Below, one piece after another: positions 16,273 to 52,704 of a stretch of 64,000 nt of DNA (within the stretch, counting starts at the first letter, position 1; each line of letters opens with the position of its first letter). A model generated the notes under the pieces. It did not search any database. It was given only the letters and a program-made list of their open reading frames with translations, and was not told the DNA's origin. Position numbers and translations under genes: made by a program. The stretch is from an uncultured Candidatus Saccharibacteria bacterium (GTDB lineage: Bacteria; Patescibacteriota; Minisyncoccia; Phycocordibacterales; UBA2100). Location: positions 21,652 to 85,651 of the forward strand of contig CAZOZG010000001.1 in the NCBI GenBank assembly GCA_964584225.1, in the 5' to 3' direction.

Positions 16273-16542
16273 GAGTTCATTGTAGCGTTAATCGTAGATT
16301 CAGGAAGCCGCTGGATACTAAAGTGCATGTTTGCGGCTGCACCGGGGTTTATCATGGCACTCCTTTTTCTCCTCGGCGCTATCGTGGTGAGCGATCTTTT
16401 GATGGTGCAGGGGACGCCGCAGATCCCGAATACCGGCCTCGAGGCGAGCACGAGCGCATATACGGGCGCGGAGTGACCTCGAGTAGCCTGGGGAGTTTCC
16501 ATTTGCAATTTGCCCAAGCCTAGTGCATACTCGGCGAGTTCT

Positions 16543-16959
16543 ATGACAGTAGAAGCGACAGTCAAGAAGGCGCGCAAGCCGCGCGCCAAGAAAGCAGTTA
16601 ATAAAACTGCTGACGCTTCCGCTGCTCCCGTGCGCGCCAAAAAAGCAGATACCTCGCATCGCCTCCGGATTCGCGTGCGTGCCTATGAGCACGGCGTCTT
16701 GGATGGCGCGGTGAAGCAGATCATCGACGTCGCAGCGCGACACAATGCAGAAGTCATCGGCCCCGTGCCACTCCCGATCGATATCAAGAAATACACCGTG
16801 AATCGCGCGGCGTTTATCGATAAGGATTCGCGTGAGCAATTTGAAATTCGTATTCACAAGCGCATGATCGACATTCTGAATCCAGCGCCGAAAGTCATCG
16901 AAGCACTCACCAACATCGATCTGCCTTCCGGCGTCTCGATCGACGTGAAGATGATGTAA
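16543..16959 (+). CDS. rpsJ: 30S ribosomal protein S10 with ~35-aa Lys/Ala-rich N-terminal extension
   Basis: Core RLRIRVRAYEH...EIRIHKRMIDI matches S10; TTGCAA-17-CATACT promoter 12 nt upstream of the ATG. Confidence 0.9.
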   Translation: MTVEATVKKARKPRAKKAVNKTADASAAPVRAKKADTSHRLRIRVRAYEHGVLDGAVKQIIDVAARHNAEVIGPVPLPIDIKKYTVNRAAFIDKDSREQFEIRIHKRMIDILNPAPKVIEALTNIDLPSGVSIDVKMM

Positions 16960-16982: not shown

Positions 16983-18572
16983 ATGATGCGGCCAGTGTTT
17001 TTTTCTGTGCTCGGCGGGCTTCTGCTCGGGATAGGGTTTGTCGTCCCAATCGTGTGGACGCTCGTTTTTTTTGGGTTCATCCCTCTTTTGTATGCACTCA
17101 GCGAGGCGCGCTCAGATGCGCACGCCTTTGGACTTGGCTGGTGCAGTGGCTTCGCTCTCTACGGTTGCGCGATTTTTGGAATCTTTTGGTTCACGTTGCC
17201 GCTCGATTGGCTCGGTGTGTTTCCGTTGTGGTTTCAGATCGTGCTCGTCGGGATCAGCTGGTCGCTGACGAGCTCAGGGCTCGCGCTTTCCGTCGGGCTT
17301 TTTGCGGTCGTCGTTCGGCGTCTCAGCAGCGACTCATGGCACGATGTTTTTATCGTTCCCGCAGCGTGGGTACTGTGCGAGTGGCTCGCCATGTGGGAAT
17401 TCAGTATTCAAAACGCAGGCAATGGCTCGATTCTCGGGGCTCATTTTGGGCTCGGACAACTGGGGAATCTGGTCGCGCACGACGACGTACTGCTGCAGCT
17501 TGCGTCGCTTGGTGGCGTCTATATATTGAGCGCGCTCGTTCCGATTGTCGGCGTTTTGCTGTATCGACTGCGGTGCACGCACGGCTCAGAGCGCCGCGCC
17601 ATCGTCAACGTGATCGCGATCGTCGTCGTTGTGTGGGTGATGGGCTACGCGTTTTTGGAGCGCACCCCGAGTGCGCCTGCGGGCGCACTCGGGGTGCGCG
17701 TCGCACTCGTCTCCACCCAGGAGCCGCCGATTTTTCATCCGTCGGCCGATGACGCCAAAAAAAGTTTTGAGACGGTGAAAACGATACTGCCACGTGGAGA
17801 GGGAAGCGACATCGTCGTGCTTCCTGAAAGCACAGAATTTTTGAATTATTATCGCGCCGTTGATGGCCCCCTATTCGCGCAACACGTCGCCGAACTCTTG
17901 GGCACGAGTTCACCCATCCTGATCGATTCAGACACGATACAGGTCGTTGGCGGTTCGCTTGAATCGCAACTCGAACTCTATGATCCCACGACGCGTGAGT
18001 CGATCAAGAGTTATAAATATTTCTTGCTGCCAGATGGTGAGTACGTTCCTTCGATGTACAACGTTCTCATTCCACTCCTCGGTCAAGGTGCGGCTCTGAA
18101 GGCAGTCGCGCAATATCGTACGTTCGAACACGCGCTTGCACCGGCGCCTCTTTTTGTTCGCAATACATCGCTCGGCGTGCTCTTTTGCAATGAGACAATG
18201 AGTCCGACCTTGTATGCCTCGCTCGCTCTACATGGTGCGTCGGTCTTTATCAACGTCGCTGCGCACAGCTGGTTCCATGGGTCACGTGTCGTCGCCGAAC
18301 AAATGCTAGAAGCTGCAAAAATTCGTGCTGTCGAAAGTCGCCGTTGGTACGCGCAAGCGACTGACGTTGCGCCGTCGTTTGTCCTTGATCCGTATGGTCG
18401 CGTGGCGACGTCGTCAGCGTGGGGGAGTGTCGGACTCGTCAACGCCGTGGTGTATCCGCGCACCGACAGCACGCCCTACAGTGCGTTTCCTCTGTGGCCA
18501 TTGATTCTATGCACAGTTCTTATACTCGCGCGGTTTGGACGTGGCAGAAGGCGTGAGAAAATGGACGCATGA
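16983..18572 (+). CDS. lnt: apolipoprotein N-acyltransferase-like (Lnt-like: N-terminal polytopic domain plus C-terminal CN-hydrolase domain)
   Basis: About 8 N-terminal TM helices, then a nitrilase-fold region with VVLPE, a K-containing segment and LGVLFCNE (candidate E-K-C triad). Confidence 0.55.
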   Translation: MMRPVFFSVLGGLLLGIGFVVPIVWTLVFFGFIPLLYALSEARSDAHAFGLGWCSGFALYGCAIFGIFWFTLPLDWLGVFPLWFQIVLVGISWSLTSSGLALSVGLFAVVVRRLSSDSWHDVFIVPAAWVLCEWLAMWEFSIQNAGNGSILGAHFGLGQLGNLVAHDDVLLQLASLGGVYILSALVPIVGVLLYRLRCTHGSERRAIVNVIAIVVVVWVMGYAFLERTPSAPAGALGVRVALVSTQEPPIFHPSADDAKKSFETVKTILPRGEGSDIVVLPESTEFLNYYRAVDGPLFAQHVAELLGTSSPILIDSDTIQVVGGSLESQLELYDPTTRESIKSYKYFLLPDGEYVPSMYNVLIPLLGQGAALKAVAQYRTFEHALAPAPLFVRNTSLGVLFCNETMSPTLYASLALHGASVFINVAAHSWFHGSRVVAEQMLEAAKIRAVESRRWYAQATDVAPSFVLDPYGRVATSSAWGSVGLVNAVVYPRTDSTPYSAFPLWPLILCTVLILARFGRGRRREKMDA

Positions 18573-18814
18573 AAGCGCGAGCGACCCTCCCGGGGTTGAT
18601 TGTCCTGTGCGGATTTCTTCTTTCGTACGCGATTGTCGCCGCTGGCGGCAAAGGTGGGGGAGGTGGCTACGTCCCGCCGCCGCCGCCAGCCGCGTGTTGC
18701 TCCACCTACTACTATTGCAGCGGCAACGACTTAGGTAAGCACCACGCAGATTGCACTGACTCTGTCATTCAGACATGTCCGGACGGCTGCAGAAACAGCG
18801 CGTGTAATCCATAG
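18569..18814 (+). CDS. small secreted Cys-rich protein (signal peptide, poly-Gly/Pro, YYCSGNDL...TC..GC..C module)
   Basis: 81 aa; ATGA overlap with the lnt stop; shares the Cys module with 18819, 41628 and 51355. Confidence 0.45.
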   Translation: MKARATLPGLIVLCGFLLSYAIVAAGGKGGGGGYVPPPPPAACCSTYYYCSGNDLGKHHADCTDSVIQTCPDGCRNSACNP

Positions 18815-18818
18815 TCAT

Positions 18819-20963
18819 ATGCGCCTGCGTTACGCACTCATCGGTTCACTTCTCCTCATGCCGCTCGTGGCATTTGCGGGAGGAAAAGGCGGCTACGCGC
18901 AAGGCTACTACCAGGGCTACTACGCACCGCCGTGTCATGACCCGTACTACTATTGTACTGGCAATGATTTGTACGAAAAATTGACCGACGACACCGACCA
19001 ATTCGTCAAAACGTGCGCCAATGGTTGTAACAGTGCGACAGGTGCGTGTATTGACGAAAACCCACCGCAGCCCGTGACCTACACGCCGCCAAGCTGCACG
19101 ATCACATTCGACAAAAATCCCGTGGCACCCGGAGAAAGTACGACCATGCATTGGAGTTCCAGCAATGCGTATTCGATGTACATCAATACGGTTGGTTATG
19201 TCGACCCGTCCGGCTCGGCAACGGTGAACGTCAATCAGACCACCGACCTTTCGGGCGTTGCGACTGGATACAATGCGCCCGCAGGAGCGCCAGCGCCAAC
19301 AAATCAGACGAGCGCGCCGCCGCCCCCGTCGAACACCGTTACCTTCACGACACCGGGCACGTACGAATACACCTGGACGGCACCGACTGGCGTCACGCAA
19401 GTGCACGCGACAGTCGTCGGCGGCGGCGGCGGCGGCGCGGGCGGCCAGGCGCCCGACGACGATGGAGGCTGCGATTGTATTTTGGGCTCGGGCGGCGGGG
19501 CGGGTGGCGCACAGATTAATGAAACCATCAGCGTGACGCCAGGTCAGACGTATCAAGTTATTGTCGGACGAGGTGGTCTCGGTGGTATTCATCGCTCGGT
19601 GTCGTACTGCCCGAGTACCTTCCCCGGCGCGAACGGTGGTGATTCGTCGTTTGGCACGCTCGTAGCGCATGGAGGACAAGCAGGATCCGGCATTTACACA
19701 GGCGGAGCTGGTGGCACGCCAGGCGGGACTGCGGGCTGCGGCGGCACACTCTACTCTGGCGGCTCGAGCTGCGGCGGCACGAACGCCACTTCTCACGGAG
19801 CTGGCGGCACGGGCGGCGGCTGCTACGTCAACGGAGGTAATGGCGCTGATGGCTACGTTTCAATCTCGTGGGACTCGCCTGCGCCTTCTACCGAAACGCC
19901 ACCACCCAACAGCGTGTCTGTCTCGTGTGCGGCAGTGCTCACAACTGATGCCTCACTCGCGCCGTCGGCCCGCATCAGAGCTGACTCAGTCATTGTTGCG
20001 CTTGGTGATTCGATTGGCGTCCACGCCGATTACACCGTCGGCACAGGTGATACCTTAGGATCATCGCGTATCGATTCGCCAGAAGGTAACGCAGTGACCG
20101 GTAGTTCTGCGCTTGCGCATCGCGACTACAGCTTTGCTCCGGCGGTCACCGGTCTTTACACGTTCTTTGCTCGACTCGCGAGCGCAAAATTCCCGACACT
20201 CAAGACATACGATTCGGTCGGGGTACAAGTCTCAGAGAACACGGCGTGTGGCAGCGGTCAGTATTTCGCGACTGATCAGCCCTACGGTGGAGAATGTATT
20301 TGTAAAATAAATAACGCGTTGCCGATCAATGGGCAGTGCGAGTCGTCGTGCACGCTCGGCCAGCACTCCTCAGGCGGCGTATGCTTGTGCGACAACAATG
20401 ACACTGCCCCCGTTTTTGGTGAGTGTCATATGTGCACGGTGGGTACGCCAGTGTGCGCCGGGCCCGATGTCGATGGTGACAGCATCGGTGACAGCATCGC
20501 GCACATTTCAAATGCGCTCACATGTGCCGTAGATACTAGCAACCTCACTGCCTGCAGCAGCGGCTATCACTGCGTATCGGGTCAATGCACACATATGCCA
20601 CCGACTGCGTACTTCCGCGCGCTTCCTGGTGTTGTCGCGAAAGGTAACGCGTCGTCGCTTGCGTGGTTTGCCGCTGGCGTGCAGCCAAGCTCGTGCTCGG
20701 TCACGGGCCCCAACGGTCAAGCCTTTAGTTCGGTCGCGATTGGATCGGCACAAGCCTCCGGCAGTAGCACCGGCGCATGCTCGAGTGCGAACACAAGTTG
20801 CCCGCTCGGCTCTGTGTGTTTGGGGACGCAGTGCATCAACGCGCAACCGACAGCGGCTATCACGTCGCGCAGCACGTTCAATCTTGCGTGCACCGGGCTC
20901 GATGGCACTCCGCTGCGTCAAAGTGTGACGATTGGTATCGCGCCCACACATAGTGAGCACTAA
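18819..20963 (+). CDS. large secreted glycine-rich cell-surface protein (714 aa)
   Basis: Signal peptide; Cys module; CTITFDKNP Ig-like domain; Gly-rich beta-type domain (TPGTYEYTWTAPTGVTQVHATVVGGGGGG...VSISW); C-terminal Ig-like domain ending PTHSEH. Confidence 0.7.
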   Translation: MRLRYALIGSLLLMPLVAFAGGKGGYAQGYYQGYYAPPCHDPYYYCTGNDLYEKLTDDTDQFVKTCANGCNSATGACIDENPPQPVTYTPPSCTITFDKNPVAPGESTTMHWSSSNAYSMYINTVGYVDPSGSATVNVNQTTDLSGVATGYNAPAGAPAPTNQTSAPPPPSNTVTFTTPGTYEYTWTAPTGVTQVHATVVGGGGGGAGGQAPDDDGGCDCILGSGGGAGGAQINETISVTPGQTYQVIVGRGGLGGIHRSVSYCPSTFPGANGGDSSFGTLVAHGGQAGSGIYTGGAGGTPGGTAGCGGTLYSGGSSCGGTNATSHGAGGTGGGCYVNGGNGADGYVSISWDSPAPSTETPPPNSVSVSCAAVLTTDASLAPSARIRADSVIVALGDSIGVHADYTVGTGDTLGSSRIDSPEGNAVTGSSALAHRDYSFAPAVTGLYTFFARLASAKFPTLKTYDSVGVQVSENTACGSGQYFATDQPYGGECICKINNALPINGQCESSCTLGQHSSGGVCLCDNNDTAPVFGECHMCTVGTPVCAGPDVDGDSIGDSIAHISNALTCAVDTSNLTACSSGYHCVSGQCTHMPPTAYFRALPGVVAKGNASSLAWFAAGVQPSSCSVTGPNGQAFSSVAIGSAQASGSSTGACSSANTSCPLGSVCLGTQCINAQPTAAITSRSTFNLACTGLDGTPLRQSVTIGIAPTHSEH

Positions 20964-21013
20964 ACTGTTAATAGCGAGGGTCGAAGAGAAAATTTGTCGG
21001 TACAATAAGACGC

Positions 21014-21472
21014 ATGTATCACAAGGCGCTCTATGGGGGCCTCGCGATTTGCCTGTTACTCATCGCTATCATCATTTGGTTGTCGTACGCGTCCCAAACG
21101 GCGCCAGGCAGTACCGGTGTCACTTCCCCTCAAACCGCCGCTCACTCTTTGTCGAACAGTCCAGCCCCGAAACCTGGCGGCTTTCAGCTTTTGATTTCAT
21201 ATACCGAGAGCGGCTTCCAGCCCGCGATCGCACACGTGAAGCCAGGTAACACCGTTCGTTTTACAAATAATTCTTCGGGCACGTTGTGGGTCAGTGCATA
21301 CGGCAGAAATGTGTATCCACGCGAATCATCAAGTTGCGGTCAGAGCGCGCTCGATTCCTGCAAAGCGATCGCGCGCGGCGCGTTTTGGGAGTTTACGCTC
21401 AAAAATGCCGGTACCTGGTTGTATCAGAACAAAAATGACACCAGCAAAAACGGAAGCATCGTTGTGAAATGA
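21014..21472 (+). CDS. hypothetical membrane-anchored protein (possible cupredoxin-like beta domain)
   Basis: N-terminal TM; C-terminal PAIAHVKPGNTVRFTNNSSGTLWV beta-rich pattern. Confidence 0.35.
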   Translation: MYHKALYGGLAICLLLIAIIIWLSYASQTAPGSTGVTSPQTAAHSLSNSPAPKPGGFQLLISYTESGFQPAIAHVKPGNTVRFTNNSSGTLWVSAYGRNVYPRESSSCGQSALDSCKAIARGAFWEFTLKNAGTWLYQNKNDTSKNGSIVVK

Positions 21473-21473
21473 T

Positions 21474-24329
21474 ATGAAACACGTCATACACAATCTGTCA
21501 GTCGTCGTCCTTGGTCTCGGTTTCCTCATCGTGCCTTCGCTTCTGTATGCATATGGCGAAGGGAATTACTACAGCGAGGGGTATTACTATAGCCAATCGT
21601 ATTACGAAGGATTTTATTACAGCCAGGGTTCATACTCATCCAACGCGAAAAGTTGTGATCAGACATTTTCAACACCCGGTCCCGGTACATTTACTGTCCC
21701 AGCAGGTGTCACATCGCTTCGAGTAGTCGCAGTCGGCGGTGGCGGTGGCGGTGGCGCGGGTGCCGGCGGTTGGGGAAGTGGCGGTGGCGGTGGTTGCAGC
21801 GGGGCGGTAGTGGGAAACACGCTCACCGTTACACCTGGGCAAGCAATCCCAGTCTATGTTGGTTATGGCGGAGCAGGAGGTAATGGCGCCGGTCAGTGCA
21901 CTATCTCAGGGTTTCCATGGTGCGGTTCGTATAATCCAAGCACAAATGGTTCTACAGGCGGTGATTCTGGGTTTGGCTCAATCGTTGCGCACGGCGGAAG
22001 CTGGGGAAGGACGGGATTTTACAATCTGTTCAATCAATATCCGGGTGGTAGTGGAGGCGGCTCTGGCGGTGGCGGGGGAGGAAACGGCTGGCCAGGGTTT
22101 TATGCACAAGCTGGAAATGGAGGAATGGCGGGCGGACAGACAAATAGCCAAGGTGCCGGTGGATATTGCACGGGAGGTGGTTGGGGCTGGAACGGTACGT
22201 CGCTCATCAAACAGGTCCCGTATGCAGCTGGCCAGGGGGGCACTGTCGGCGGCGGGTACTACGGTGGCGGCGGTGGCGGCGGACTCATTTTGAACGGCAG
22301 CAGCATCAAGGGCGGTGACGGCCAGTCAAGCCCCGGTAACGGCGGCGTCGGCTACGGAGCGGGCGGCGGCGGTTCGAATCTCGACAACACTGGCGTCGGC
22401 GGCAGTGGGGCACAAGGCATAGTCTACGTTGAATGGGATCCATCTTCGTCTGGTTCGTGTTCTGCGCCACCACCACCCCCTCCGCCGACGGCGCAATGCT
22501 CAATCACATTTGATAAAAATCCAATCAATTTCGGCGATGGCACTACTATTCATTGGACGTCGAACGGAGGTGATCTCTACATCAACAACATCGGATACGT
22601 GAATGCAACAGGGACGGCCGTCGTCCAGCCAGCGACGACGACTGATTATTCAGGAGTTGTCTCCTCCAGCACCTCACTGGCATTCGCGCCGTCTCAGCGA
22701 GGAAAAGTCGCCGGCGCCGGGTCGCAATCGTACATAACGCCGGGCACCTATCAGTTCACGATTCCGAATTACACCGGGACGCTCACGGCCACAGTAAACG
22801 GCGCCGGGGGAGCAGGCGGCTGGGGAGGTTGCGGCGTCGATTCCGGTGGATCAAATCAGTGTCTATATGGCGCAGGCCAAGGAGTCGCATCTGGTTCAGG
22901 CGAGTCGTCTTCATTTGGGTCGGCCATGGCGGGTGGCGGCGGAAATGGTGCCGAAGGTGGGAGGGGTATTACTAGCGACCCTTGTAATGGAGGACCCGGC
23001 GCAGATGGCAACCCGGGAACAGGGACTGTCTCTGGCGGAGGCGCTCTCGGCGGCGGAGGGGGCGATGGATACACAGGAGGATGGTGCAACGGAGGAAAAG
23101 GAGGCACGGGAGGATCTGGAGGTAAGACGACTCAAACATTCACTACGTCTACACTTGCACCCGGGTCCACTGTGACAGTCGTCGTTGGTGCAGGTGGCAT
23201 CGGCTGGGTGGGGTATTGCAATCAGACTTGTGCCGGTTCTGGCCAAAACGGCTCCGTCTCAATCTCCTGGACAGACGCATCAAACCCACCTCCACCCACC
23301 TGCTCCAACGGTCTCAATATCAGCCAATATCCCAGTTGCTCTTGCCCGAGCGGGCAGTCCCAAAGTGGTTCGACGTGTGTGGCGCCCGCGGCACCGAAAG
23401 TTGTTGCAACCTGCCCCGTCACCCTCACCGTCAACAAACCCACAACTCCCACTGCACACATCAGTGCCGATTTCACGAAGCTCACCGTGGGTGAAACCAC
23501 CGGGATCCACGCAGACTTCTCAGCGGGCTCGGGAGATGCAATCGCGGAAGACAACATCGATTCGCCGGAGGGGACGGGCCTTGGTGCGACGACCAACCCT
23601 GATTCGCGCAAAGACATCACCTTCACCGCGTCCACGACGGGGACCTACACCTTCTACGCGCGCATGCGCACGGCAAATTTTCCCGAGTGGAAGTCGTACG
23701 ACAGTGTCACGATCACGGTCTCACCGTCGGCTGAATGCAATACGAACAACGACTGCGCGACCGATGAAATTTGTTCGACATCATCGATGTGCGAATTCCT
23801 CGATTGCGGTGTCGATACCAACATGCATGCAGAAAATCACGAGTGTGTCTGTGATGCCAATTACGCACTCGGCAGCGACAATATCTGCCACCTCGAATGC
23901 ATCGATGCATTTATCTGTGCCAACGCCGACGGCACGCCAGACCCGGGTGGCACCTACAGCGCTCACCAGGATACGAGCTGCACGCTCGGCGCACCGCAGT
24001 TATGTCAGTACGGATGTCTCAATGGCATTTGTGAAAGTCCAACACCGGCCTTTACCTTCAGAATTGTCCCAAGCGCAGTCGTCAAAGGAAACACGACGAC
24101 AATCATCTGGAATGCGACGCATGTGAGTTCCTGTACACTCACTGGTGACAACACAGACGCGTGGAGTTGCGACGATACTGCCTCCTGCACGACGCTTCAT
24201 ACCGTCACCACCGCTCCGATCCAGGGCAAGACGACCTACACACTTTCGTGTCTGCCGCTTGCCGGTCAGCCAGCGATTCCTGATCAAAAGAAGGCAGTCA
24301 CTGTCACGCCCACGCATAGCGAACACTAG
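21474..24329 (+). CDS. giant secreted glycine-rich cell-surface protein (951 aa), paralog of 18819-20963
   Basis: Signal peptide plus Tyr-rich low complexity; CSITFDKNP domain; two Gly-rich domains; PPPP linker; shared central domain (IDSPEG...YTFYARM); Cys-rich EGF-like segment; C-terminal domain ending PTHSEH. Confidence 0.7.
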   Translation: MKHVIHNLSVVVLGLGFLIVPSLLYAYGEGNYYSEGYYYSQSYYEGFYYSQGSYSSNAKSCDQTFSTPGPGTFTVPAGVTSLRVVAVGGGGGGGAGAGGWGSGGGGGCSGAVVGNTLTVTPGQAIPVYVGYGGAGGNGAGQCTISGFPWCGSYNPSTNGSTGGDSGFGSIVAHGGSWGRTGFYNLFNQYPGGSGGGSGGGGGGNGWPGFYAQAGNGGMAGGQTNSQGAGGYCTGGGWGWNGTSLIKQVPYAAGQGGTVGGGYYGGGGGGGLILNGSSIKGGDGQSSPGNGGVGYGAGGGGSNLDNTGVGGSGAQGIVYVEWDPSSSGSCSAPPPPPPPTAQCSITFDKNPINFGDGTTIHWTSNGGDLYINNIGYVNATGTAVVQPATTTDYSGVVSSSTSLAFAPSQRGKVAGAGSQSYITPGTYQFTIPNYTGTLTATVNGAGGAGGWGGCGVDSGGSNQCLYGAGQGVASGSGESSSFGSAMAGGGGNGAEGGRGITSDPCNGGPGADGNPGTGTVSGGGALGGGGGDGYTGGWCNGGKGGTGGSGGKTTQTFTTSTLAPGSTVTVVVGAGGIGWVGYCNQTCAGSGQNGSVSISWTDASNPPPPTCSNGLNISQYPSCSCPSGQSQSGSTCVAPAAPKVVATCPVTLTVNKPTTPTAHISADFTKLTVGETTGIHADFSAGSGDAIAEDNIDSPEGTGLGATTNPDSRKDITFTASTTGTYTFYARMRTANFPEWKSYDSVTITVSPSAECNTNNDCATDEICSTSSMCEFLDCGVDTNMHAENHECVCDANYALGSDNICHLECIDAFICANADGTPDPGGTYSAHQDTSCTLGAPQLCQYGCLNGICESPTPAFTFRIVPSAVVKGNTTTIIWNATHVSSCTLTGDNTDAWSCDDTASCTTLHTVTTAPIQGKTTYTLSCLPLAGQPAIPDQKKAVTVTPTHSEH

Positions 24330-24377
24330 CCTGTGCATATCTCACTGTTGCTCCTCGCGCGTTGGTACAATGGTTCC

Positions 24378-24761
24378 ATGATGGTTCACGTGCGTCACAC
24401 GCTCATCGCCGCATTCACTGCGCTCTTCGTTGCGGCGGTCATCGTCCCGGTGCTCGCACACGCACAAGAGACCGATCTAAAGACAGCGATTCGCGCCGCG
24501 ATCAGCGCCGACGCACGATCTGCTCACCTCACCTCCGCGCAGCTTGATGCCTTGGCGACTGCGCTCACGACACAAGCACAGTCCAACGGTGTGACAGCGC
24601 AAGATATCGAGTGGAAGCCGACGAGCGCCCTTTCGCCCGCACCCGTCTCCAATGGCTCAGACATGACTGGTCTATGGATGTTGACGCTTTTCTTTGCATC
24701 CATGCTCGGCCTTGCGACTATCGCAGCGATGATGGAGCAATCAAAAGCACAAATGGCGTAA
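24378..24761 (+). CDS. hypothetical protein with N- and C-terminal hydrophobic segments
   Basis: 128 aa; Ala-rich helical middle. Confidence 0.35.
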   Translation: MMVHVRHTLIAAFTALFVAAVIVPVLAHAQETDLKTAIRAAISADARSAHLTSAQLDALATALTTQAQSNGVTAQDIEWKPTSALSPAPVSNGSDMTGLWMLTLFFASMLGLATIAAMMEQSKAQMA

Positions 24762-26163: not shown

Positions 26164-26760
26164 ATGAAATTCATGCTCGGCACCAAAGGCAAAATGACCC
26201 AGGTCTTCGACGACGCTGGTGCCGTCTGGGCTGCGACGATCGTAAACGCCGGTCCGTTGACCGTCACGCAGGTGAAGACGACGGAGAAAGATGGGTATGC
26301 ATCAGCGCAAGTGGGTTTTGGCATGAAGAAAGAAAAGCGCGTCAACCAAGCGCAAAAGGCAAAGCCGTTTCAATACATGCGCGAATTTACAGATAAAACA
26401 CTGCCGGAAATGGGCGCGAAAATCGACGCGTCGATTTTCGCGCCAGGCGATGTTGTCGCCGTTTCCGCGATCTCAAAAGGCAAAGGCTTCCAGGGCGTCG
26501 TGAAGCGCCACGGTTTTGCAGGCGGTCCTCGCTCGCACGGCCAGAAGAATAAAGAGCGCGCGCCCGGATCAATCGGCGGTGGTGCACGAGCTGGCGCACA
26601 CGTCGCAAAAGGCATGCGCATGGCCGGCCGTATGGGCAGTGATCGCATCACCATCAAAAACCTCAAAGTGCTGCAAGTCGACGCAGCGTCAAACACGATT
26701 GTGATTTCAGGCGCGATTCCCGGTCGTCCGGGCACGCTCGTTGAAATCGTAGGAAAATAA
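26164..26760 (+). CDS. rplC: 50S ribosomal protein L3
   Basis: 198 aa; QVFDDAG...KGKGFQGVVKRHGF motif typical of L3. Confidence 0.95.
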   Translation: MKFMLGTKGKMTQVFDDAGAVWAATIVNAGPLTVTQVKTTEKDGYASAQVGFGMKKEKRVNQAQKAKPFQYMREFTDKTLPEMGAKIDASIFAPGDVVAVSAISKGKGFQGVVKRHGFAGGPRSHGQKNKERAPGSIGGGARAGAHVAKGMRMAGRMGSDRITIKNLKVLQVDAASNTIVISGAIPGRPGTLVEIVGK

Positions 26761-28854: not shown

Positions 28855-30060
28855 ATGGCGAATTCGTTCGAGGATTTTCAGCTGAAAAGGAAGGAGCGCA
28901 ACGAAGATTTCGACGCCGAACTCGACTCGCTGCAGCAGCGCCTCGGGTACCGCTTTAAAAACAAAGAGCTTTTGATACAGGCGCTCACCGCGAGAGGTTT
29001 CGCCGAGCAGATTGGTGAGCGACACAACACGAGACTCGAAGCGCGCGGCGACGATATTTTGGAGCGGCGAGTCAATGCATGGCTCACACAACACCCGTTT
29101 GGTTCCTATCGAGGGTATATCTATTTAAACGGTTTTCTCAACAGCAACCTGTATCTTTCATCGGCCGGCGTTCGTTTGGGCATTGATCGCGGCGTCCGCG
29201 TGAATGAGGCGCGTGCACAGAGTCAAAGTGTCGAGACGAAAATACGGATGACCGCCGACGCCATGGAAGCGATCATCGCGGCGATCGAAGACGATGGTGG
29301 CAGACCTGCCTCGATCGACTTTATGGAGGCGCACTTGTTGCCCGAATCGGTGTCGGATTCGCCGCTTGGGCGTTTTGTTGGGCTATGCTCCGGTGATCCG
29401 CACGTGATCGAGCAGACATTCAACTCGCTCTTGCGTGGACGAGCAAAACTAGAAATGACTAAACAGGGGAGGGATTTTCATGCAGTCATCAAGGGCGTCG
29501 ACCTGCCCGACGTTCCTTCCAGCCACTCCGACGCTGCACACGCCGCTCATCGAGCAGTCATGACATTTCTCCGGCAAAATCCGTGGGTGCTGTGGGGTTT
29601 CGACGGGCCGGTGAGTCAGCGTGCACCTTCAATGGCATGGGGCGCATACCCGGAGTACGTCGAGCAATCTCTGCCGAAAGAAGTGCGAACGCCCGAATAC
29701 ATCGAAGATCCATACCTTTCGGTCCCTCATCGCGAGGAAGAAGGATGGCCAGATATCGAAATTCCTGCGCTCTTGCCTGAATCAACTCGAGATCGCGGCC
29801 CCTACATCGACAAACTTCGCTGTGTGCTCGAAGGTAAAACTGTCGTCGTGCGTTCGAAAAAAATCGGCAAGGAACAGTTTCCTCGCTACGCATTCTATGT
29901 CGACAAAAATTTTCTCACGACTGTCGAAGGACGTCGCACCTTGAACGACGCCGCGAGTCAGGCCTTACGTGAGCTCGCTGAGATCGAGGCAGAGGGAATA
30001 GAGGATAAAGAAGCAGACGAATTGCCGGTAGAAAATTCACCGGAACCAGAAAGTCAATAA
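28855..30060 (+). CDS. atypical RNase III-like protein (N-terminal ribonuclease III catalytic domain plus ~230-aa C-terminal extension with possible dsRBD-like end)
   Basis: NTRLEARGDD matches the ERLEFLGD signature with E and D retained. MTADAMEAIIAAIEDDGG matches ADALEAL(I)GAIYLDGG. It is 401 aa versus about 230 aa for canonical bacterial RNase III. Confidence 0.55.
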   Translation: MANSFEDFQLKRKERNEDFDAELDSLQQRLGYRFKNKELLIQALTARGFAEQIGERHNTRLEARGDDILERRVNAWLTQHPFGSYRGYIYLNGFLNSNLYLSSAGVRLGIDRGVRVNEARAQSQSVETKIRMTADAMEAIIAAIEDDGGRPASIDFMEAHLLPESVSDSPLGRFVGLCSGDPHVIEQTFNSLLRGRAKLEMTKQGRDFHAVIKGVDLPDVPSSHSDAAHAAHRAVMTFLRQNPWVLWGFDGPVSQRAPSMAWGAYPEYVEQSLPKEVRTPEYIEDPYLSVPHREEEGWPDIEIPALLPESTRDRGPYIDKLRCVLEGKTVVVRSKKIGKEQFPRYAFYVDKNFLTTVEGRRTLNDAASQALRELAEIEAEGIEDKEADELPVENSPEPESQ

Positions 30061-44948: not shown

Positions 44949-47768
44949 ATGCCTCCATCGACGATGGAGAAGCCGCGCGTTGTGGCTTCGGAGAAATTTA
45001 AATCCCCTCAAGAGGAATTGGCGTATTTGCGTGAGCAAGTGCGGCAGAAGGAGCAGGAACTTGAAGCTGCGCCGAATCGTTTTGAGAGTGATCGGATCGC
45101 CAAGCGCGAAATCGTAAGCTACGGTAATGCGCCGGCGGCGCAGATTTTACACGAAGATGTTGTCATGCCTGAGCACGATATCTTGCGCAACGTCTTGAAA
45201 CTTGAGCCGGAAGCGCACGACGCGCAACTCGACGAACTCTTGAAGATCGTCGTTGATCGCGGGATCAAAAACGCGTTGTCGGTTGCGGCGCGCCTTAAAA
45301 ACCCACACATCGAAGACGATTTACATCGCGCGCTCGTGCGCTACGTCGCAGAGGGTCTGCCGATGCACGGCGCGCCGCCGGAAAAGATCCGTCGTGCGCT
45401 GGATCTGATTCTCTTCACGATCGAACCGCAGGCGCACGGCGACAGAGAGAAGCAAGACAACAGCCAGCATCGTCTCGAACAAGTGCTCGCGCCATCGGAG
45501 CAACTCTATGCGGGTCTCACCTCGCTTATCGCTCCGCACGAAGGTTTTTCACTTGAGATTGCAGTTCCCGATGGTACAGAAGAAGCACTGCTCTACCTCG
45601 CTGTCCCGCGCTCCAAAAAGCATCTCGCCGAACGACTCATTTCATCGGTGTTCCCGAATGCACACATTGCCGAAAATCGTGGCGACTACAATGTTTTCAA
45701 TTTTGAAGGTGAGAACGCGGCTGCGTACGCGAAGCTCGCGAATCACCCTGCGTACCCCCTAAAGACACCGGACATGTTCGAACACGATCCGATGAATGTG
45801 CTTCTGGCGGCGTTTGCAAAAATCGCGAAACACGGCGAAGGCGCAGCGATGCAAGTCATCGTGTCTTCTGACGGCGACCGCTACAATGAGCACTATAAGA
45901 AAATGCTCCGCCGACTCGGAGAGGGCAAACATCTCCACCGCGTCCTCAATGTTCCCGAGTCGACGATTGGCGAGGTTCTCTACGACGTGAGTCACACGAT
46001 GTTCCAGGGCCAGCAGGAACTTCAAGATCAAAAAGACAAAGAGATGCGACGGCAGCCCGACAAGGTTGCGCAAGAAGAGATCGAGCGCAAAGTCAAAAGC
46101 AGAATTTGCCCGGCCCTTATCCGGCTTGTCGCCTCAGCGCCTGAAAAGCACCGCGCAGAAGAAATCATCGACAATCTGATCGCGCCGTTCTCGCAGTACG
46201 ACGACCCGCGTGGGAATCGCCTTGAGTTTAAAAAAGTCTCGAGTTGGCACAAAAACACTTTTTTGCGTGATTTCACCTATCGCACCTATGATCCAGCCTA
46301 CGCGATGCCGCTTTCACTTGCGGAGATCACCTCCATTTTCCATTTCACCGCCGAGCGTGTGCACACTTCGCCCGAGCTGAAGCGTTCCTTCGCCAAACAA
46401 GCGCCCTCACCAGTCGAAATGCCCGCCGACGGGATCGTGGTCGGTATCAACCGCTACGGTGCCGATGAGCGACCGGTTCATTTTGGCGCCGCCGATCGTC
46501 TCAGGCACTGCTACGTCATCGGGCAAACGGGTACGGGAAAGACAGGCTTTCTGAAAAACATGATTATTCAGGACATTCAAAATGGGGAAGGCGTTGCCTT
46601 TATCGATCCGCATGGCAACGACATCGAAGACGTACTCGCAGCGATTCCGCCGGAGCGCGCAAAAGATGTTATTTATTTCGATCCAGCTCACACAGAGCAA
46701 CCGATGGGACTCAACATGCTCGAGTACGATCGAAACCGTCCCGAGATGAAGACGTTCGTCGTCGACGAAGTCTACGGTATTTTCCGCAAGCTCTATGCTG
46801 ATGTGCCGGAAGCGTTTGGGCCGATGTTTGAGCAATATTATCGCAATGCCGTGCAACTCGTGGTCGAGGATCCTGATTCTGGCAGCACGTTCGTGGAGAT
46901 TCCGCGCGTCTTCGCTGATACCGCGTTTCGTAATCTGAAGCTCGCACACTGTCAAAATCCCATCATCGTGCAGTTTTGGAAGAAAATTGCAGAGCAAGCG
47001 CAAGGCGACCCGTCGCTTGAGAACGTTGCGCCCTATATCACGTCGAAATTTGACGTCTTTCTCACGAACGACATCATGCGCCCCATCGTGAGTCAGGAAA
47101 AATCCGCCTTTGATTTCCGCCAGATTATGGACGGCAAGAAAATCTTTCTCGCGAATCTCTCGAAAGGGCGTCTCGGCGATCGCAATACCGCGCTTTTGGG
47201 GCTCGTGCTCGTGTCGAAATTCCTGCAAGCAGCGTTTTCGCGAGTCGATTCACATGGCGACTTGCCAGTCTTTTACCTCTATATAGACGAATTTCAAAAT
47301 TTCGCGACGCCATCGATTGGGACGATTCTCTCTGAAGCACGTAAATATAAGCTCTCGCTTGTCGTCGCACACCAATTCATCGCACAGCTCGACGAAAAAA
47401 TCCGCGATGCAGTGATCGGTAACGTTGGCACGAAGGCGGCGTTTCGTGTCGGAACCACAGATGCGGAATTCTTAGCAAAACAGTTCGAACCGGTTTTTAG
47501 TCAAGAAGATCTGGAGAATTTGCCGAATCGAAATGCGGTTCTTTCGCTTTTGATCAACGGAACACCAGCGCGACCGTTTTCAATCCACACAGAGGATCTT
47601 CCCAAATTTGATTACGCACGCGTTGCGGCGCTTAAAGATCTTTCGTATCGCACCTACGGTAGACCGCGCGAAGAGGTTGAGGCCGAAATGCGCGCTAAAT
47701 TTGACGCCGCGTACGGAAAAAAACCCGCCCCTCGCATCGAGCCATCTCCTGCGCCAGACGTCCAGTAG
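44949..47768 (+). CDS. TraD/VirD4/HerA-FtsK-like P-loop ATPase with ~450-aa unknown N-terminal region
   Basis: GQTGTGKT Walker A, YLYIDEFQNF Walker B and VVAHQ motif in the C-terminal half; the N-terminal half has no recognisable motifs. Confidence 0.6.
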   Translation: MPPSTMEKPRVVASEKFKSPQEELAYLREQVRQKEQELEAAPNRFESDRIAKREIVSYGNAPAAQILHEDVVMPEHDILRNVLKLEPEAHDAQLDELLKIVVDRGIKNALSVAARLKNPHIEDDLHRALVRYVAEGLPMHGAPPEKIRRALDLILFTIEPQAHGDREKQDNSQHRLEQVLAPSEQLYAGLTSLIAPHEGFSLEIAVPDGTEEALLYLAVPRSKKHLAERLISSVFPNAHIAENRGDYNVFNFEGENAAAYAKLANHPAYPLKTPDMFEHDPMNVLLAAFAKIAKHGEGAAMQVIVSSDGDRYNEHYKKMLRRLGEGKHLHRVLNVPESTIGEVLYDVSHTMFQGQQELQDQKDKEMRRQPDKVAQEEIERKVKSRICPALIRLVASAPEKHRAEEIIDNLIAPFSQYDDPRGNRLEFKKVSSWHKNTFLRDFTYRTYDPAYAMPLSLAEITSIFHFTAERVHTSPELKRSFAKQAPSPVEMPADGIVVGINRYGADERPVHFGAADRLRHCYVIGQTGTGKTGFLKNMIIQDIQNGEGVAFIDPHGNDIEDVLAAIPPERAKDVIYFDPAHTEQPMGLNMLEYDRNRPEMKTFVVDEVYGIFRKLYADVPEAFGPMFEQYYRNAVQLVVEDPDSGSTFVEIPRVFADTAFRNLKLAHCQNPIIVQFWKKIAEQAQGDPSLENVAPYITSKFDVFLTNDIMRPIVSQEKSAFDFRQIMDGKKIFLANLSKGRLGDRNTALLGLVLVSKFLQAAFSRVDSHGDLPVFYLYIDEFQNFATPSIGTILSEARKYKLSLVVAHQFIAQLDEKIRDAVIGNVGTKAAFRVGTTDAEFLAKQFEPVFSQEDLENLPNRNAVLSLLINGTPARPFSIHTEDLPKFDYARVAALKDLSYRTYGRPREEVEAEMRAKFDAAYGKKPAPRIEPSPAPDVQ

Positions 47769-51354: not shown

Positions 51355-52704
51355 TTACAGGCCCGCGCGCGTGCCGCCGAATGGTTTCAAGGCCGCGAGA
51401 ATTCCCAAGAGCGTTGTCTTCAATGTCTGGAGCATTGCTTGAAAACCGGTTGTCTGAGAACCGATAAGCGCACCGCCATTGTAATTACTGTTTGCAAGAT
51501 CTGGCGAAACAAACGTCGGGCCGCCGCTTGGCGCAAGCGCATACGTATTGCTCGCAAGGCCAGCGTTCGGCGTTGGCTGCGAAGGGAACACTGGTACGAG
51601 AGAGACGGAATTATTCGAAATACCGTTCACGTCGAGAGATGCGTTCGCGCCGGAGCCGGTGCTCGTGGAAGATCCGTAGAGGTACTGATTGAGCAAATCG
51701 TAGATCGATGTAGAGCCTGAGTTCCCTGCCCTGCTTCCAGTCGTGCTCGCGCTTTCTGCGTTGCACATACCCGAAGCGCACCCGCTCGGACACGCCTGGT
51801 ACTGCTGTTGGGTGCAACTCGATGTCTGATAAAAAACAGCGTTGCCGGAGCAATAAAATTGTGGCGAGCACAACCCGACGGTCGAAGTTGCGCTTGTCGA
51901 CGTACCAACAGGCAACACGGTCACAGGCGTGAACGGCAGTGATGCGGGATTAAAAAGGTTGCGAAATGCGTTTGAAAGTGGGGCGGTCGGCGTGGTTTGC
52001 ATCGGAGTGTTCGACGGCCCAGGTCCGAGTTCATACTCGGCGTTGCTGTTGCGGTTGACTCCCTGGTACGCAGGACCCGATGTGTAGCTGCCATCCAACG
52101 TCCCGTATCCCCCCGTGCTCCCGTTACAAGATTGTGCACACTGACTTGTCGGTGGGCGTGCGCCGCCATCCTGCACGTGCGCTGGGTCCCACGCTCCTAT
52201 AACTGCGAGACCAAATTGCGAGACGTTGGCACGAATCCAAGTAACCGTTTGCGCGCCAGTGTTGTTGAAGTCCGCTGCGAGGCCGTACTGATGATATGAG
52301 CCGCAGGGACCAACTCTCGTCGATCCGGCGGGTAAATTCGCCTGAGCAACTGGCGATCGATAACCGTCATTAATGACCGGCTTCGGAAGACCTGCGGGCA
52401 CTGCCTGAATCATATTCTTTAGTTTTTCGGCAAACGCAGCGTTGAAGCAAGAAACGTTCACGTTTCTTGTCACGTATTGCCGGAGAAATTCCTTCGCGTC
52501 GCTTGCCTGCAAGCCGGTCTCTGCGTTTGAAGGGTCATAGCATTCGCCGAGAGAGAGCATGCCGAGTTTGTAGATTGCATCGTTGGCCATCACAGCGCGG
52601 GTTCCCGGTAAGATCGAACAGTCAGTCGTTGCGAAGGCTATCGGTGCCGGACTAGAGAGGAGGGCCAACAAACCAAAAAAAGCGACCAGCCGGCGTATTG
52701 CCAT
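51355..52704 (-). CDS. secreted LAS/M15-like peptidase-domain protein, paralog of 41628-42995
   Basis: GYRSPVAQ, SYHQYGLAADF and WDPAH motifs; CSPQFYCSGNAVFYQTSSC...CPSGCASGMC module; C-terminal LLGILAALKPFGG. Confidence 0.55.
   Translation of the reverse strand: MAIRRLVAFFGLLALLSSPAPIAFATTDCSILPGTRAVMANDAIYKLGMLSLGECYDPSNAETGLQASDAKEFLRQYVTRNVNVSCFNAAFAEKLKNMIQAVPAGLPKPVINDGYRSPVAQANLPAGSTRVGPCGSYHQYGLAADFNNTGAQTVTWIRANVSQFGLAVIGAWDPAHVQDGGARPPTSQCAQSCNGSTGGYGTLDGSYTSGPAYQGVNRNSNAEYELGPGPSNTPMQTTPTAPLSNAFRNLFNPASLPFTPVTVLPVGTSTSATSTVGLCSPQFYCSGNAVFYQTSSCTQQQYQACPSGCASGMCNAESASTTGSRAGNSGSTSIYDLLNQYLYGSSTSTGSGANASLDVNGISNNSVSLVPVFPSQPTPNAGLASNTYALAPSGGPTFVSPDLANSNYNGGALIGSQTTGFQAMLQTLKTTLLGILAALKPFGGTRAGL

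Follow-up and report, generated by a model that had tools for sequence, protein, structure and literature searches.

A C-terminal Ig-like cassette with a conserved free tail on modular, phage-fibre-like secreted proteins encoded in the ribosomal gene cluster of Paceibacteria

Two cysteine-rich modular proteins end in the same six residues

The DNA considered here is a stretch of 64,000 nucleotides (64 kb) from an uncultured Candidatus Saccharibacteria bacterium (GenBank assembly GCA_964584225.1, contig CAZOZG010000001.1, positions 21,652 to 85,651), referred to below as the window. Between the ribosomal protein genes rpsJ and rplC it carries two open reading frames (ORFs), ORF A and ORF B, whose products both end in the hexapeptide PTHSEH. 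An annotation made from the letters alone (the original prediction) had described them as giant secreted glycine-rich surface proteins that share five modules and an identical free C-terminus. Both ORFs were present on the + strand as claimed and the identical terminus was confirmed on each; at 714 and 951 amino acids (aa), the proteins are large, not giant.

18819-20963, + strand: ORF A, 714 aa, 33 Cys
20943-20960, + strand: PTHSEH tail of ORF A, encoded by the six codons that precede its stop
21474-24329, + strand: ORF B, 951 aa, 36 Cys
24309-24326, + strand: PTHSEH tail of ORF B, the last six codons before the stop

Alignment, Pfam matches and the sequences themselves also bore out the five common modules and identify ORFs A and B as paralogous, Cys-rich modular proteins, arranged as follows (Ig, immunoglobulin).

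ORF A, residues 1-20: signal peptide
ORF A, residues 21-37: Gly/Tyr low complexity
ORF A, residues 38-78: Cys module
ORF A, residues ~90-160: C-TITFDKNP beta module
ORF A, residues 171-354: Gly_rich_2 domain
ORF A, residues ~367-472: central beta-sandwich
ORF A, residues 473-592: Cys-rich spacer
ORF A, residues 595-708: C-terminal Ig-like domain, with a Cys-rich insert
ORF B, residues 1-26: signal peptide
ORF B, residues 27-57: Tyr-rich low complexity
ORF B, residues 58-324: Gly_rich_2 domain 1
ORF B, residues 339-400: C-SITFDKNP beta module
ORF B, residues 413-603: Gly_rich_2 domain 2
ORF B, between Gly_rich_2 domain 2 and the central beta-sandwich: Cys linker
ORF B, residues 641-752: central beta-sandwich
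ORF B, residues 753-857: Cys-rich spacer
ORF B, residues 858-945: C-terminal Ig-like domain

In both proteins the N-terminus has the basic, hydrophobic and small-x-small character of a Sec signal peptide and is followed by Gly/Tyr low complexity. The C(T/S)ITFDKNP modules are 49% identical between ORFs A and B (E 9e-21), and the C-terminal ~420 aa, comprising the central and Ig-like modules, are 29% identical (E 9e-43). The 33 and 36 Cys residues fit an extracytoplasmic, disulfide-rich character. We do not claim that the C-ITFDKNP module is of the same family as the terminal domain, whose profile matched it only with an i-E of 17. Pfam and NCBIfam scans returned nothing for the central domain or for a small 81-aa ORF located upstream of ORF A.

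A Tyr/Ser/Gln-rich repeat, exemplified by YYSEGYYYSQSYYEGFYYSQGSY and YSQKYYQSSYYSQSYYQSYYQSSYY, stands directly after the signal peptide in ORF B (residues 27-57, window positions 21552-21644) and in three other proteins, P0003, P0012 and P0013 (P and L numbers are our handles for proteins and loci).

PTHSEH is a local form of a family-wide tail

A six-frame scan found PTHSEH followed by a stop nowhere else in the window. The tail codons of ORFs A and B (CCC ACA CAT AGT GAG CAC TAA versus CCC ACG CAT AGC GAA CAC TAG) have three synonymous differences and different stop codons, and the C-terminal domain apart from the tail shows no more than 34% identity (27 of 80 aligned columns). Recent copying at the DNA level thus does not explain the shared hexapeptide.

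Homologs from other genomes share a more general terminus, P-x-[F/Y/W]-x-E-x-COOH, which closes the C-terminal Ig-like domain. All full-length homologs of ORF B end in ...V-N-(I/V)-x-P-x-(F/Y)-x-E-x and, where named, all belong to Paceibacterota or Kaiserbacteria. When the terminal domains were aligned with those of both window proteins, a Pro, a Trp, two Cys, the tail Pro and the penultimate Glu were invariant. Apart from the aromatic residue treated below, both window proteins have the features by which we define membership, namely a terminal Ig-like domain with Trp, two Cys and ...V-N-I-x-P-x-[FYW]-x-E-x, with the stop in register.

The tail recurred when it was left out of the query. Two internal motifs of the domain retrieved 49 metagenomic loci with 48 readable copies, 41 of which end in P-x-[FYHW]-x-E-x-stop; another three depart slightly from this pattern but keep the register. 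Among 45 non-redundant termini, Pro was present in 42, Glu in 42 and Phe, Trp or Tyr in 39. A scan of 185,579 genomes, one per species, with the tail alone as the query pattern matched 26 stretches, of which 15 encode relatives; these lie in metagenome-assembled genomes mostly labelled Kaiserbacteria, Paceibacterota, Parcubacteria group or Adlerbacteria, and several are labelled "uncultured bacterium". Our census comprises 81 tail proteins in 63 loci, and two or three of them commonly lie side by side within one locus.

At least five unrelated N-terminal passenger types are found on tail proteins. Besides Gly_rich_2, there are proteins without that domain that carry three GYAWSDTIGWISL-type repeats, a Cys-rich region of the form FTDNS...PASCPSNP, a YGIDWDNNG module, CARDB, or other sequence with no Pfam match. 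The C-terminal 100 aa of ORFs A and B, containing the terminal domain, matched no Pfam or NCBIfam model, and we did not find this family in the literature on PF21722, on glycine-rich surface proteins of the candidate phyla radiation (CPR), on Patescibacteria sorting signals or on Parcubacteria adhesins; one paper found there, PMC13622651, is about a host Esx effector and has no bearing on the family. What is new is a C-terminal cassette that closes in an invariant free tail, is confined to Paceibacteria, serves several passengers as a module and is encoded within the ribosomal cluster; neither Pfam, NCBIfam nor the searched literature covers any of this.

The literal hexapeptide was absent from every homolog terminus seen, and its exact DNA pattern had 0 matches in the metagenome collection. 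The expectation that homologs elsewhere would end in PTHSEH failed for the literal peptide and held for the general P-x-aromatic-x-E-x-COOH terminus. The closest ortholog of ORF A, which is full length and 54% identical, ends in PVFHEQ. Both window paralogues have His at -4, Ser at -3 and His at -1. In the 45 termini from the unbiased scan, the first of these was found 0 times, and the other two were absent from the residues listed. In both window proteins, His occupies the aromatic position of the tail and the stop register is identical. Judged from the aligned termini, PTHSEH is this genome's local variant of the family tail and, because the ORF A ortholog ends in PVFHEQ, the tails of the two paralogues have changed in concert. 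A short, ancient gene conversion may have been preserved by purifying selection, or both tails may have tracked a change in a reader common to them, and in either case the peptide would be under selection. Concordance of tails within other genomes was only partial, as in one contig that has P[AT]YHE[LR] twice but also PTFNEQ.

The Ig-like fold does not appear to need the tail

A profile of the terminal domain matched 10,419 cluster representatives, mostly multi-repeat proteins. In the best of them the domain is repeated in tandem up to 22 times, and many have a C-terminal anchor of another kind. The tail was present in only 4 of the 150 top matches, and some of the proteins end right behind the last strand. 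Within tail-bearing proteins, internal copies of the domain end by profile position 87 and are followed by unrelated sequence. We modelled ORF B with AlphaFold2 from an alignment of 22 sequences (mean predicted local distance difference test, pLDDT, 68.8). The last strand of the model stops at residue 945, residues 946-948 have moderate confidence, and residues 949-951 (S-E-H) have a pLDDT below 50. From the tail-less relatives, the internal copies and the low-pLDDT end, it follows that the fold can do without the tail. The fixed register of the stop codon suggests, at the level of sequence, that the free C-terminus itself matters.

These observations bear on the possibility that the tail is only a structural cap, with Pro ending the strand and the aromatic residue and Glu folding back so as to stabilize the end or make it protease-proof, and with nothing reading it. 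The proteins would even then be secreted, phage-fibre-like binding proteins. A cap would suit a tail that begins one residue past the last predicted strand, with moderate confidence over its first half, as well as the neighboring genes described below, where no conserved tail-specific partner was found in 63 loci and the sole strongly recurrent neighbor, the small protein CUP, follows the Gly-rich passenger and not the tail. However, relatives with the same Ig-like fold, like the internal copies, end without a tail, the last three residues are those with a pLDDT below 50, and the stop register, the same in nearly all readable copies, is not obviously required by a cap. Moreover, both paralogues moved to the same unusual residues at three tail positions, although their domains are only 34% identical and the ortholog kept PVFHEQ. 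We consider a pure cap rather doubtful.

The Gly-rich domains resemble the tips of phage tail fibres

The original prediction had likened the Gly-rich module to phage tail-fibre domains, while allowing that it could be mere low complexity. ORF A scored 41.6 bits against PF21722 (Gly_rich_2) over one domain at residues 177-342, and ORF B scored 48 bits over two stretches, at a gathering threshold of 24.3 bits, which most homologs also exceed. Gly_rich_2 is a known, uncharacterised family, to which ORFs A and B belong. Its scope ends with the Gly-rich domain and takes in neither the cassette and tail nor the synteny, and many tail proteins have no PF21722 match.

In the ORF B model, pLDDT is high where the Gly-rich, central and C-terminal domains have their beta cores. 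Foldseek matched this model to the Pam3 fibre with a probability of 1.0, and the closest structures to the Gly-rich domain are phage tail proteins (cyanophage Pam3 gp24, 7ypx; mycobacteriophage Bxb1 gp33, 9d93). At the level of fold, the module is similar to the TNF-like plus glycine-rich tip domain of the Pam3 gp24 type. Sequence searches of the PDB gave no match for the whole protein, and the Gly-rich profile found Pam3 only, non-significantly (E 0.5). The matches of the whole model were mostly generic Ig arrays (complement, cytokine receptors) and were disregarded. With E values allowed up to 1, PF12810, the ALK/LTK glycine-rich domain, had no match in ORF A or B; it is present in one homolog, P0017.

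The Pam3 fibre tip is a TNF-like sandwich whose glycine-rich loops stack into a lattice, and the variable distal tip of this lattice recognises the host (PMC9608196). The tip unit is related to S16 gp38 and to the ALK/LTK ligand-binding domain, and the fibre depends on a beta-sandwich chaperone, gp25 (PMC9608196). From the Foldseek match and this description, the Gly-rich module is a genuine folded, putatively ligand-binding domain. It is no mere low complexity in either protein, given PF21722 scores above the cut-off in both and the Foldseek result on ORF B, so that the fibre-like character proposed for it was borne out. ORFs A and B most likely work as phage-fibre-like binding proteins at the cell surface.

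The likeness to the Pam3 and Bxb1 tips extends to GGGGxGG-type motifs and, for Pam3, to a beta-sandwich protein encoded next door (gp25 there, CUP here). In contrast to those tips, ORFs A and B are cellular proteins with signal peptides, have no N-terminal helix for docking to a baseplate and no phage context, and set their Gly-rich domains within an Ig-like/Cys-rich chain with the tail cassette behind. The neighbor also differs, being a membrane-anchored cupredoxin fold and not a chaperone of the Tfa/gp25 type.

The best structural matches of the Gly-rich domain could be taken to mean that these are prophage or phage-derived tail-fibre genes, carried by a mobile element that inserted beside rpsJ by chance. 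Yet both proteins have signal peptides, the nearby genes are ribosomal, envelope and cellular genes with no phage genes among them, and the position is conserved in many genomes. Relatives of the cassette numbered 0 in 2.9 million viral contigs, and tblastn found no match in 50,697 phage records, a test weakened by the low-complexity filter. The viral contigs, the phage records and the context lend no support to a phage origin and largely refute it; we give it almost no weight.

The locus is set within a ribosomal protein gene cluster

The genes that surround ORFs A and B are as follows.

16510-16959, + strand: rpsJ (S10), a typical S10 that matches Pfam Ribosomal_S10 genes at the equivalent place in L003, L004 and L021; upstream border
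16983-18572, + strand: Lnt homolog, with Pfam LNT_N and CN_hydrolase; NCBIfam TIGR00546 at 138.8 bits against a cut-off of 132.9 bits
18569-18814, + strand: 81-aa ORF that overlaps the end of Lnt by 4 nt and encodes a signal peptide, a Gly/Pro run and a Cys-knot module
21014-21472, + strand: CUP (152 aa), a membrane-anchored cupredoxin fold without copper ligands, upstream of ORF B
24333-24761, + strand: w142, with an N-terminal signal or transmembrane segment, a helical region and a C-terminal transmembrane segment
24784-26052, + strand: DUF975-like/type IV pilin-GspG-like fusion (Pfam DUF975 3.7e-6, NCBIfam GspG 4e-5, both below their cut-offs)
26164-26760, + strand: rplC (L3), matching L3 of L015, L017, L018 and L021; downstream border, followed by L4, L23 and L2

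The order in the window is tuf (9-1208) ... rpsJ, Lnt, the 81-aa ORF, ORF A, CUP, ORF B, w142, the DUF975/pilin fusion, rplC, rplD ... secY, and the gaps from rpsJ to rplC are all between -4 and 111 nt. A minimal arrangement is found in L021 (rpsJ, CUP, a Gly-rich tail protein, w142, rplC, rplD, rplW, rplB, rpsS, rplV, rpsC), with gaps of 65, -4, 14 and 144 nt from rpsJ to rplC. Tail proteins adjoin rpsJ and/or rplC, or fusA/tuf, in many other loci, and genes of the S10, L3 or EF-Tu type occur in 22 of the 40 loci of at least 6 kb. The inserted genes lie on the same strand as rpsJ and rplC and are separated by tiny gaps; to judge from this strand and spacing, they probably share a transcript with the ribosomal protein genes and are expressed constitutively.

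High expression from such a position, which recurs in the str/S10 cluster of many genomes, would also suit subunits of a polymeric surface layer or fibre, in which the exact, invariant terminus of one subunit inserts into the next in the manner of a donor strand. The architecture of Ig-like modules agrees with this, and generic Foldseek matches include the S-layer proteins 7ptp and 4aq1. These matches, however, are of the generic Ig-array kind with a TM-score of about 0.1; the passengers are very diverse and several paralogues share a locus, which one would not expect of a single lattice protein; no groove for accepting the tail was identified; and in the model the last strand already lies within its own domain. 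We think it unlikely that the proteins polymerise in this way.

The wider str/S10/spc cluster (window positions 1-39003) is interrupted by accessory genes at several points. The distance from tuf to rpsJ is ~15 kb and that from rpsJ to rplC 9.2 kb, and an RNase III-like gene (28855-30060) lies behind rplB.

CUP, w142 and ribosomal genes, but not Lnt or the pilin fusion, recur beside tail proteins

The original prediction took the adjacent Lnt-like acyltransferase and pilin-like fusion as a sign of a dedicated surface or adhesion locus. Neither is conserved, Lnt being present in 1 and the DUF975-pilin fusion in 2 of the 40 larger loci, and we rejected both as family partners on synteny. The neighbors that do recur, and which had been missed, are CUP, w142 and the ribosomal genes rpsJ, rplC and tuf.

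The AlphaFold2 model of CUP (mean pLDDT 80.8) has an N-terminal transmembrane helix at residues 2-28 and a disordered linker at 30-52. Its Foldseek matches were plastocyanin and amicyanin, with an E of 5e-7 and TM-scores of 0.7-0.8 (up to 0.81 when normalised by the target). CUP shares the cupredoxin fold with these blue copper proteins and differs from them in having no type 1 copper ligands. Its 11 homologs have no invariant His or Met, their sole invariant Cys residues are C108 and C116 in a CG.S..DSC loop, and the C-terminal ligand-loop region contains neither Cys nor His, where a type 1 site would have His, Cys, His and Met. The gene directly upstream is CUP for 9 of 20 Gly-rich tail proteins and for 2 of 38 others (Fisher p 5.5e-4; the loci are not independent), so that CUP goes with the Gly-rich passenger rather than the tail. 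We rejected CUP as a receptor of the tail, since it tracks the Gly-rich passenger and is missing beside most tail proteins. By analogy with the chaperones of phage fibres, CUP may act close to the membrane as a chaperone or tether of the Gly-rich domain.

Homologs of w142 lie just upstream of rplC in 13 loci and have a D-I-(E/L/A)-W-(K/R/Q)-P motif in the helical region; examples are found in L021 (6e-15) and L015-L017, and the loci include L021-L024, L028, L055, L058, L063 and L069. No Pfam or NCBIfam family matched w142. Because its homolog stands alone between rpsJ and rplC in L055, with no tail protein in between, the link of w142 to tail proteins may be only positional.

Lnt directly precedes the tail genes in the window, and it also precedes the ORF A ortholog of L020, a close relative. 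It is thus conceivable that ORFs A and B are lipoproteins or other substrates of this enzyme, in a locus for lipoprotein maturation. However, no lipobox Cys follows the signal peptide in either protein, the N-termini MRLRYALIGSLLLMPLVAFAGGKGG and MKHVIHNLSVVVLGLGFLIVPSLLYAYGEG being free of Cys, so they are not evident substrates of Lnt, and Lnt is missing from 39 of the 40 larger loci. Such a role is very improbable. The Lnt homolog itself, which exceeds the equivalog cut-off of TIGR00546, occurs in a bacterium that presumably has no outer membrane. The pilin fusion combines a DUF975/YciC-like multi-pass membrane domain with a pilin/GspG-like N-terminal helix and a Ser/Thr-rich tail.

The N-terminus of ORF A, with its signal peptide, Gly/Pro run and Cys module, is duplicated in the 81-aa ORF (phmmer 2e-10). 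The ortholog P0189 has the form GGKGGGGYSPPPPP at its own N-terminus. A 449-aa ORF at 51355-52704 on the - strand, with no Pfam match, matches the N-terminal Cys module of ORF A and the 81-aa ORF (7e-6).

A second conserved gene pair, analogous to CUP with a Gly-rich protein, consists of a membrane-anchored CarboxypepD_reg-like protein of ~500 aa directly upstream of a short tail protein (270-430 aa, with PQFQEI and PEFQEQ tails). It occurs in 9 loci (L049, L050, L051, L059, L062, L068, L011, L008 and L070). Further tail subfamilies have TPR membrane proteins upstream. A search for a co-conserved peptidase or sortase-like partner, as the original prediction had suggested, found none that recurs among the neighbors of tail proteins.

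A candidate lineage-specific module for sorting or retention

Several known C-terminal signals resemble the cassette in part. The C-terminal domain (CTD) of the type IX secretion system (T9SS; PF18962/TIGR04183) is likewise an Ig-like beta-sandwich of ~80-90 aa at the extreme C-terminus, has no transmembrane helix, and is found on many secreted proteins with unrelated passengers within one lineage. In some Gly_rich_2 proteins of other bacteria (P0021, P0210), PF18962 even takes the position of the cassette. The cassette differs from it in having no sequence match in Pfam or NCBIfam and in its hallmark, the invariant six-residue free terminus, and the C-terminal 100 aa of ORFs A and B gave no match to PF18962 or TIGR04183. 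Neither an outer membrane nor a T9SS is known from CPR bacteria. Signals of the sortase, exosortase and archaeosortase type are tripartite, consisting of a motif, a hydrophobic helix and a basic cluster. Those known as LPXTG, PEP-CTERM, PGF-CTERM, GlyGly-CTERM and MYXO-CTERM have in common with the cassette a short C-terminal motif, confinement to one lineage, multiple paralogues per genome and diverse passengers. ORFs A and B, however, end five residues past the Pro, with neither a hydrophobic segment nor a basic cluster, and none of the NCBIfam sorting-signal models matched them.

Earlier sorting and anchoring signals were recognised as C-terminal modules conserved among secreted proteins of one lineage that have little else in common, and by this analogy the cassette may be such a module. 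The proposal that the C-terminal motif is a secretion, sorting or processing signal stands to the extent that the motif is conserved in the family and fits sorting or anchoring; what is conserved is not literally PTHSEH.

We propose that ORFs A and B are Sec-exported, phage-fibre-like adhesins bearing a lineage-specific C-terminal retention or sorting cassette whose tail is read in trans, and put the probability of this reading as a whole at roughly 0.5; recognition of the tail in trans has about an even chance of being correct. The two paralogues of this ultra-small, Kaiserbacteria-like bacterium of the Paceibacteria (CPR) would be exported by Sec as disulfide-rich, modular surface proteins, made constitutively from between rpsJ and rplC. 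Their TNF-like/glycine-rich domains, one in ORF A and two in ORF B, would bind a ligand on another cell or surface, as expected of an adhesin or host-recognition protein of an episymbiont, and CUP would serve the Gly-rich passenger as a membrane-proximal chaperone or tether. The cassette, comprising the Cys-rich spacer, the Ig-like domain and the six-residue tail, would be a common retention or sorting module attached to several unrelated passengers. Its free tail would be read by a shared putative component, either a receptor in the cell envelope or a processing enzyme, with PTHSEH as the co-varied version in this genome.

Several points weigh against this proposal. No receptor of the tail or processing enzyme was found in the 63 loci, where the neighbors vary with the passenger subfamily (CUP, CarboxypepD_reg-like or TPR proteins). 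The tail stands directly behind the last beta-strand, with which a purely structural cap is compatible, and the ORF B model is only moderate overall at its mean pLDDT of 68.8 from 22 sequences. Four of the 15 genome records with relatives carry labels from elsewhere (three Saccharibacteria, one Alphaproteobacteria). The locus counts and the Fisher test overstate the support, as the loci are not phylogenetically independent. Finally, surface location, ligand binding and the chaperone role, as well as expression and co-transcription, are matters that we infer.

A bolder extension, possible but tentative, is that the cassette is the substrate tag of an unrecognised protein-display system of Paceibacteria, a monoderm counterpart to the T9SS CTD, with a reader that co-evolves with the tag. 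Such a system would explain the concerted switch to PTHSEH, and the cell would then present phage-fibre-like and other binding domains for host recognition from its ribosomal protein operons.

Much of bacterial diversity belongs to CPR bacteria, or Patescibacteria, many of which spend their lives attached to the cells of a host. To our knowledge, how they recognise hosts and how they retain proteins on a wall without an outer membrane is largely not understood. The work supplies a family-defining C-terminal tag that can be searched with a simple pattern, a catalogue of its passenger domains, including receptor-binding domains in common with phage tail fibres, and a conserved insertion of tail genes into the otherwise very stable rpsJ-rplC junction. 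The tag would permit genome-wide prediction of surface proteomes in Paceibacteria, guide the search for the sorting or anchoring partner and supply candidate determinants of host specificity. If the tail is a structural cap only, the finding shrinks to a well-delimited new domain family.

Other genes in the window and beside tail loci

A second secreted family accompanies tail proteins in 12 loci (L005, L006, L011, L012, L035, L041, L044, L046, L047, L049, L050 and L065). Its members start with ...SAWTGPT.APP.GNV.AP.NVG, have no Pfam match and contain GN.GIG..NP..KL.V repeats, which we take to be typical of phage tail-fibre-like proteins.

A YcaO-like protein (441-546 aa, ending in ...PHPF) and a nitroreductase-family protein are encoded a few kb from tail loci of the rpsJ-rplC type, on the other strand, each family being present in 7 loci (L003, L015-L018 and others). 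In the window itself, a 939-aa protein at 44949-47768 has motifs of TraG/VirD4-type coupling proteins (TraG-D_C, TrwB_AAD_bind), and its sequence suggests a component of a type IV secretion or conjugation-like system.

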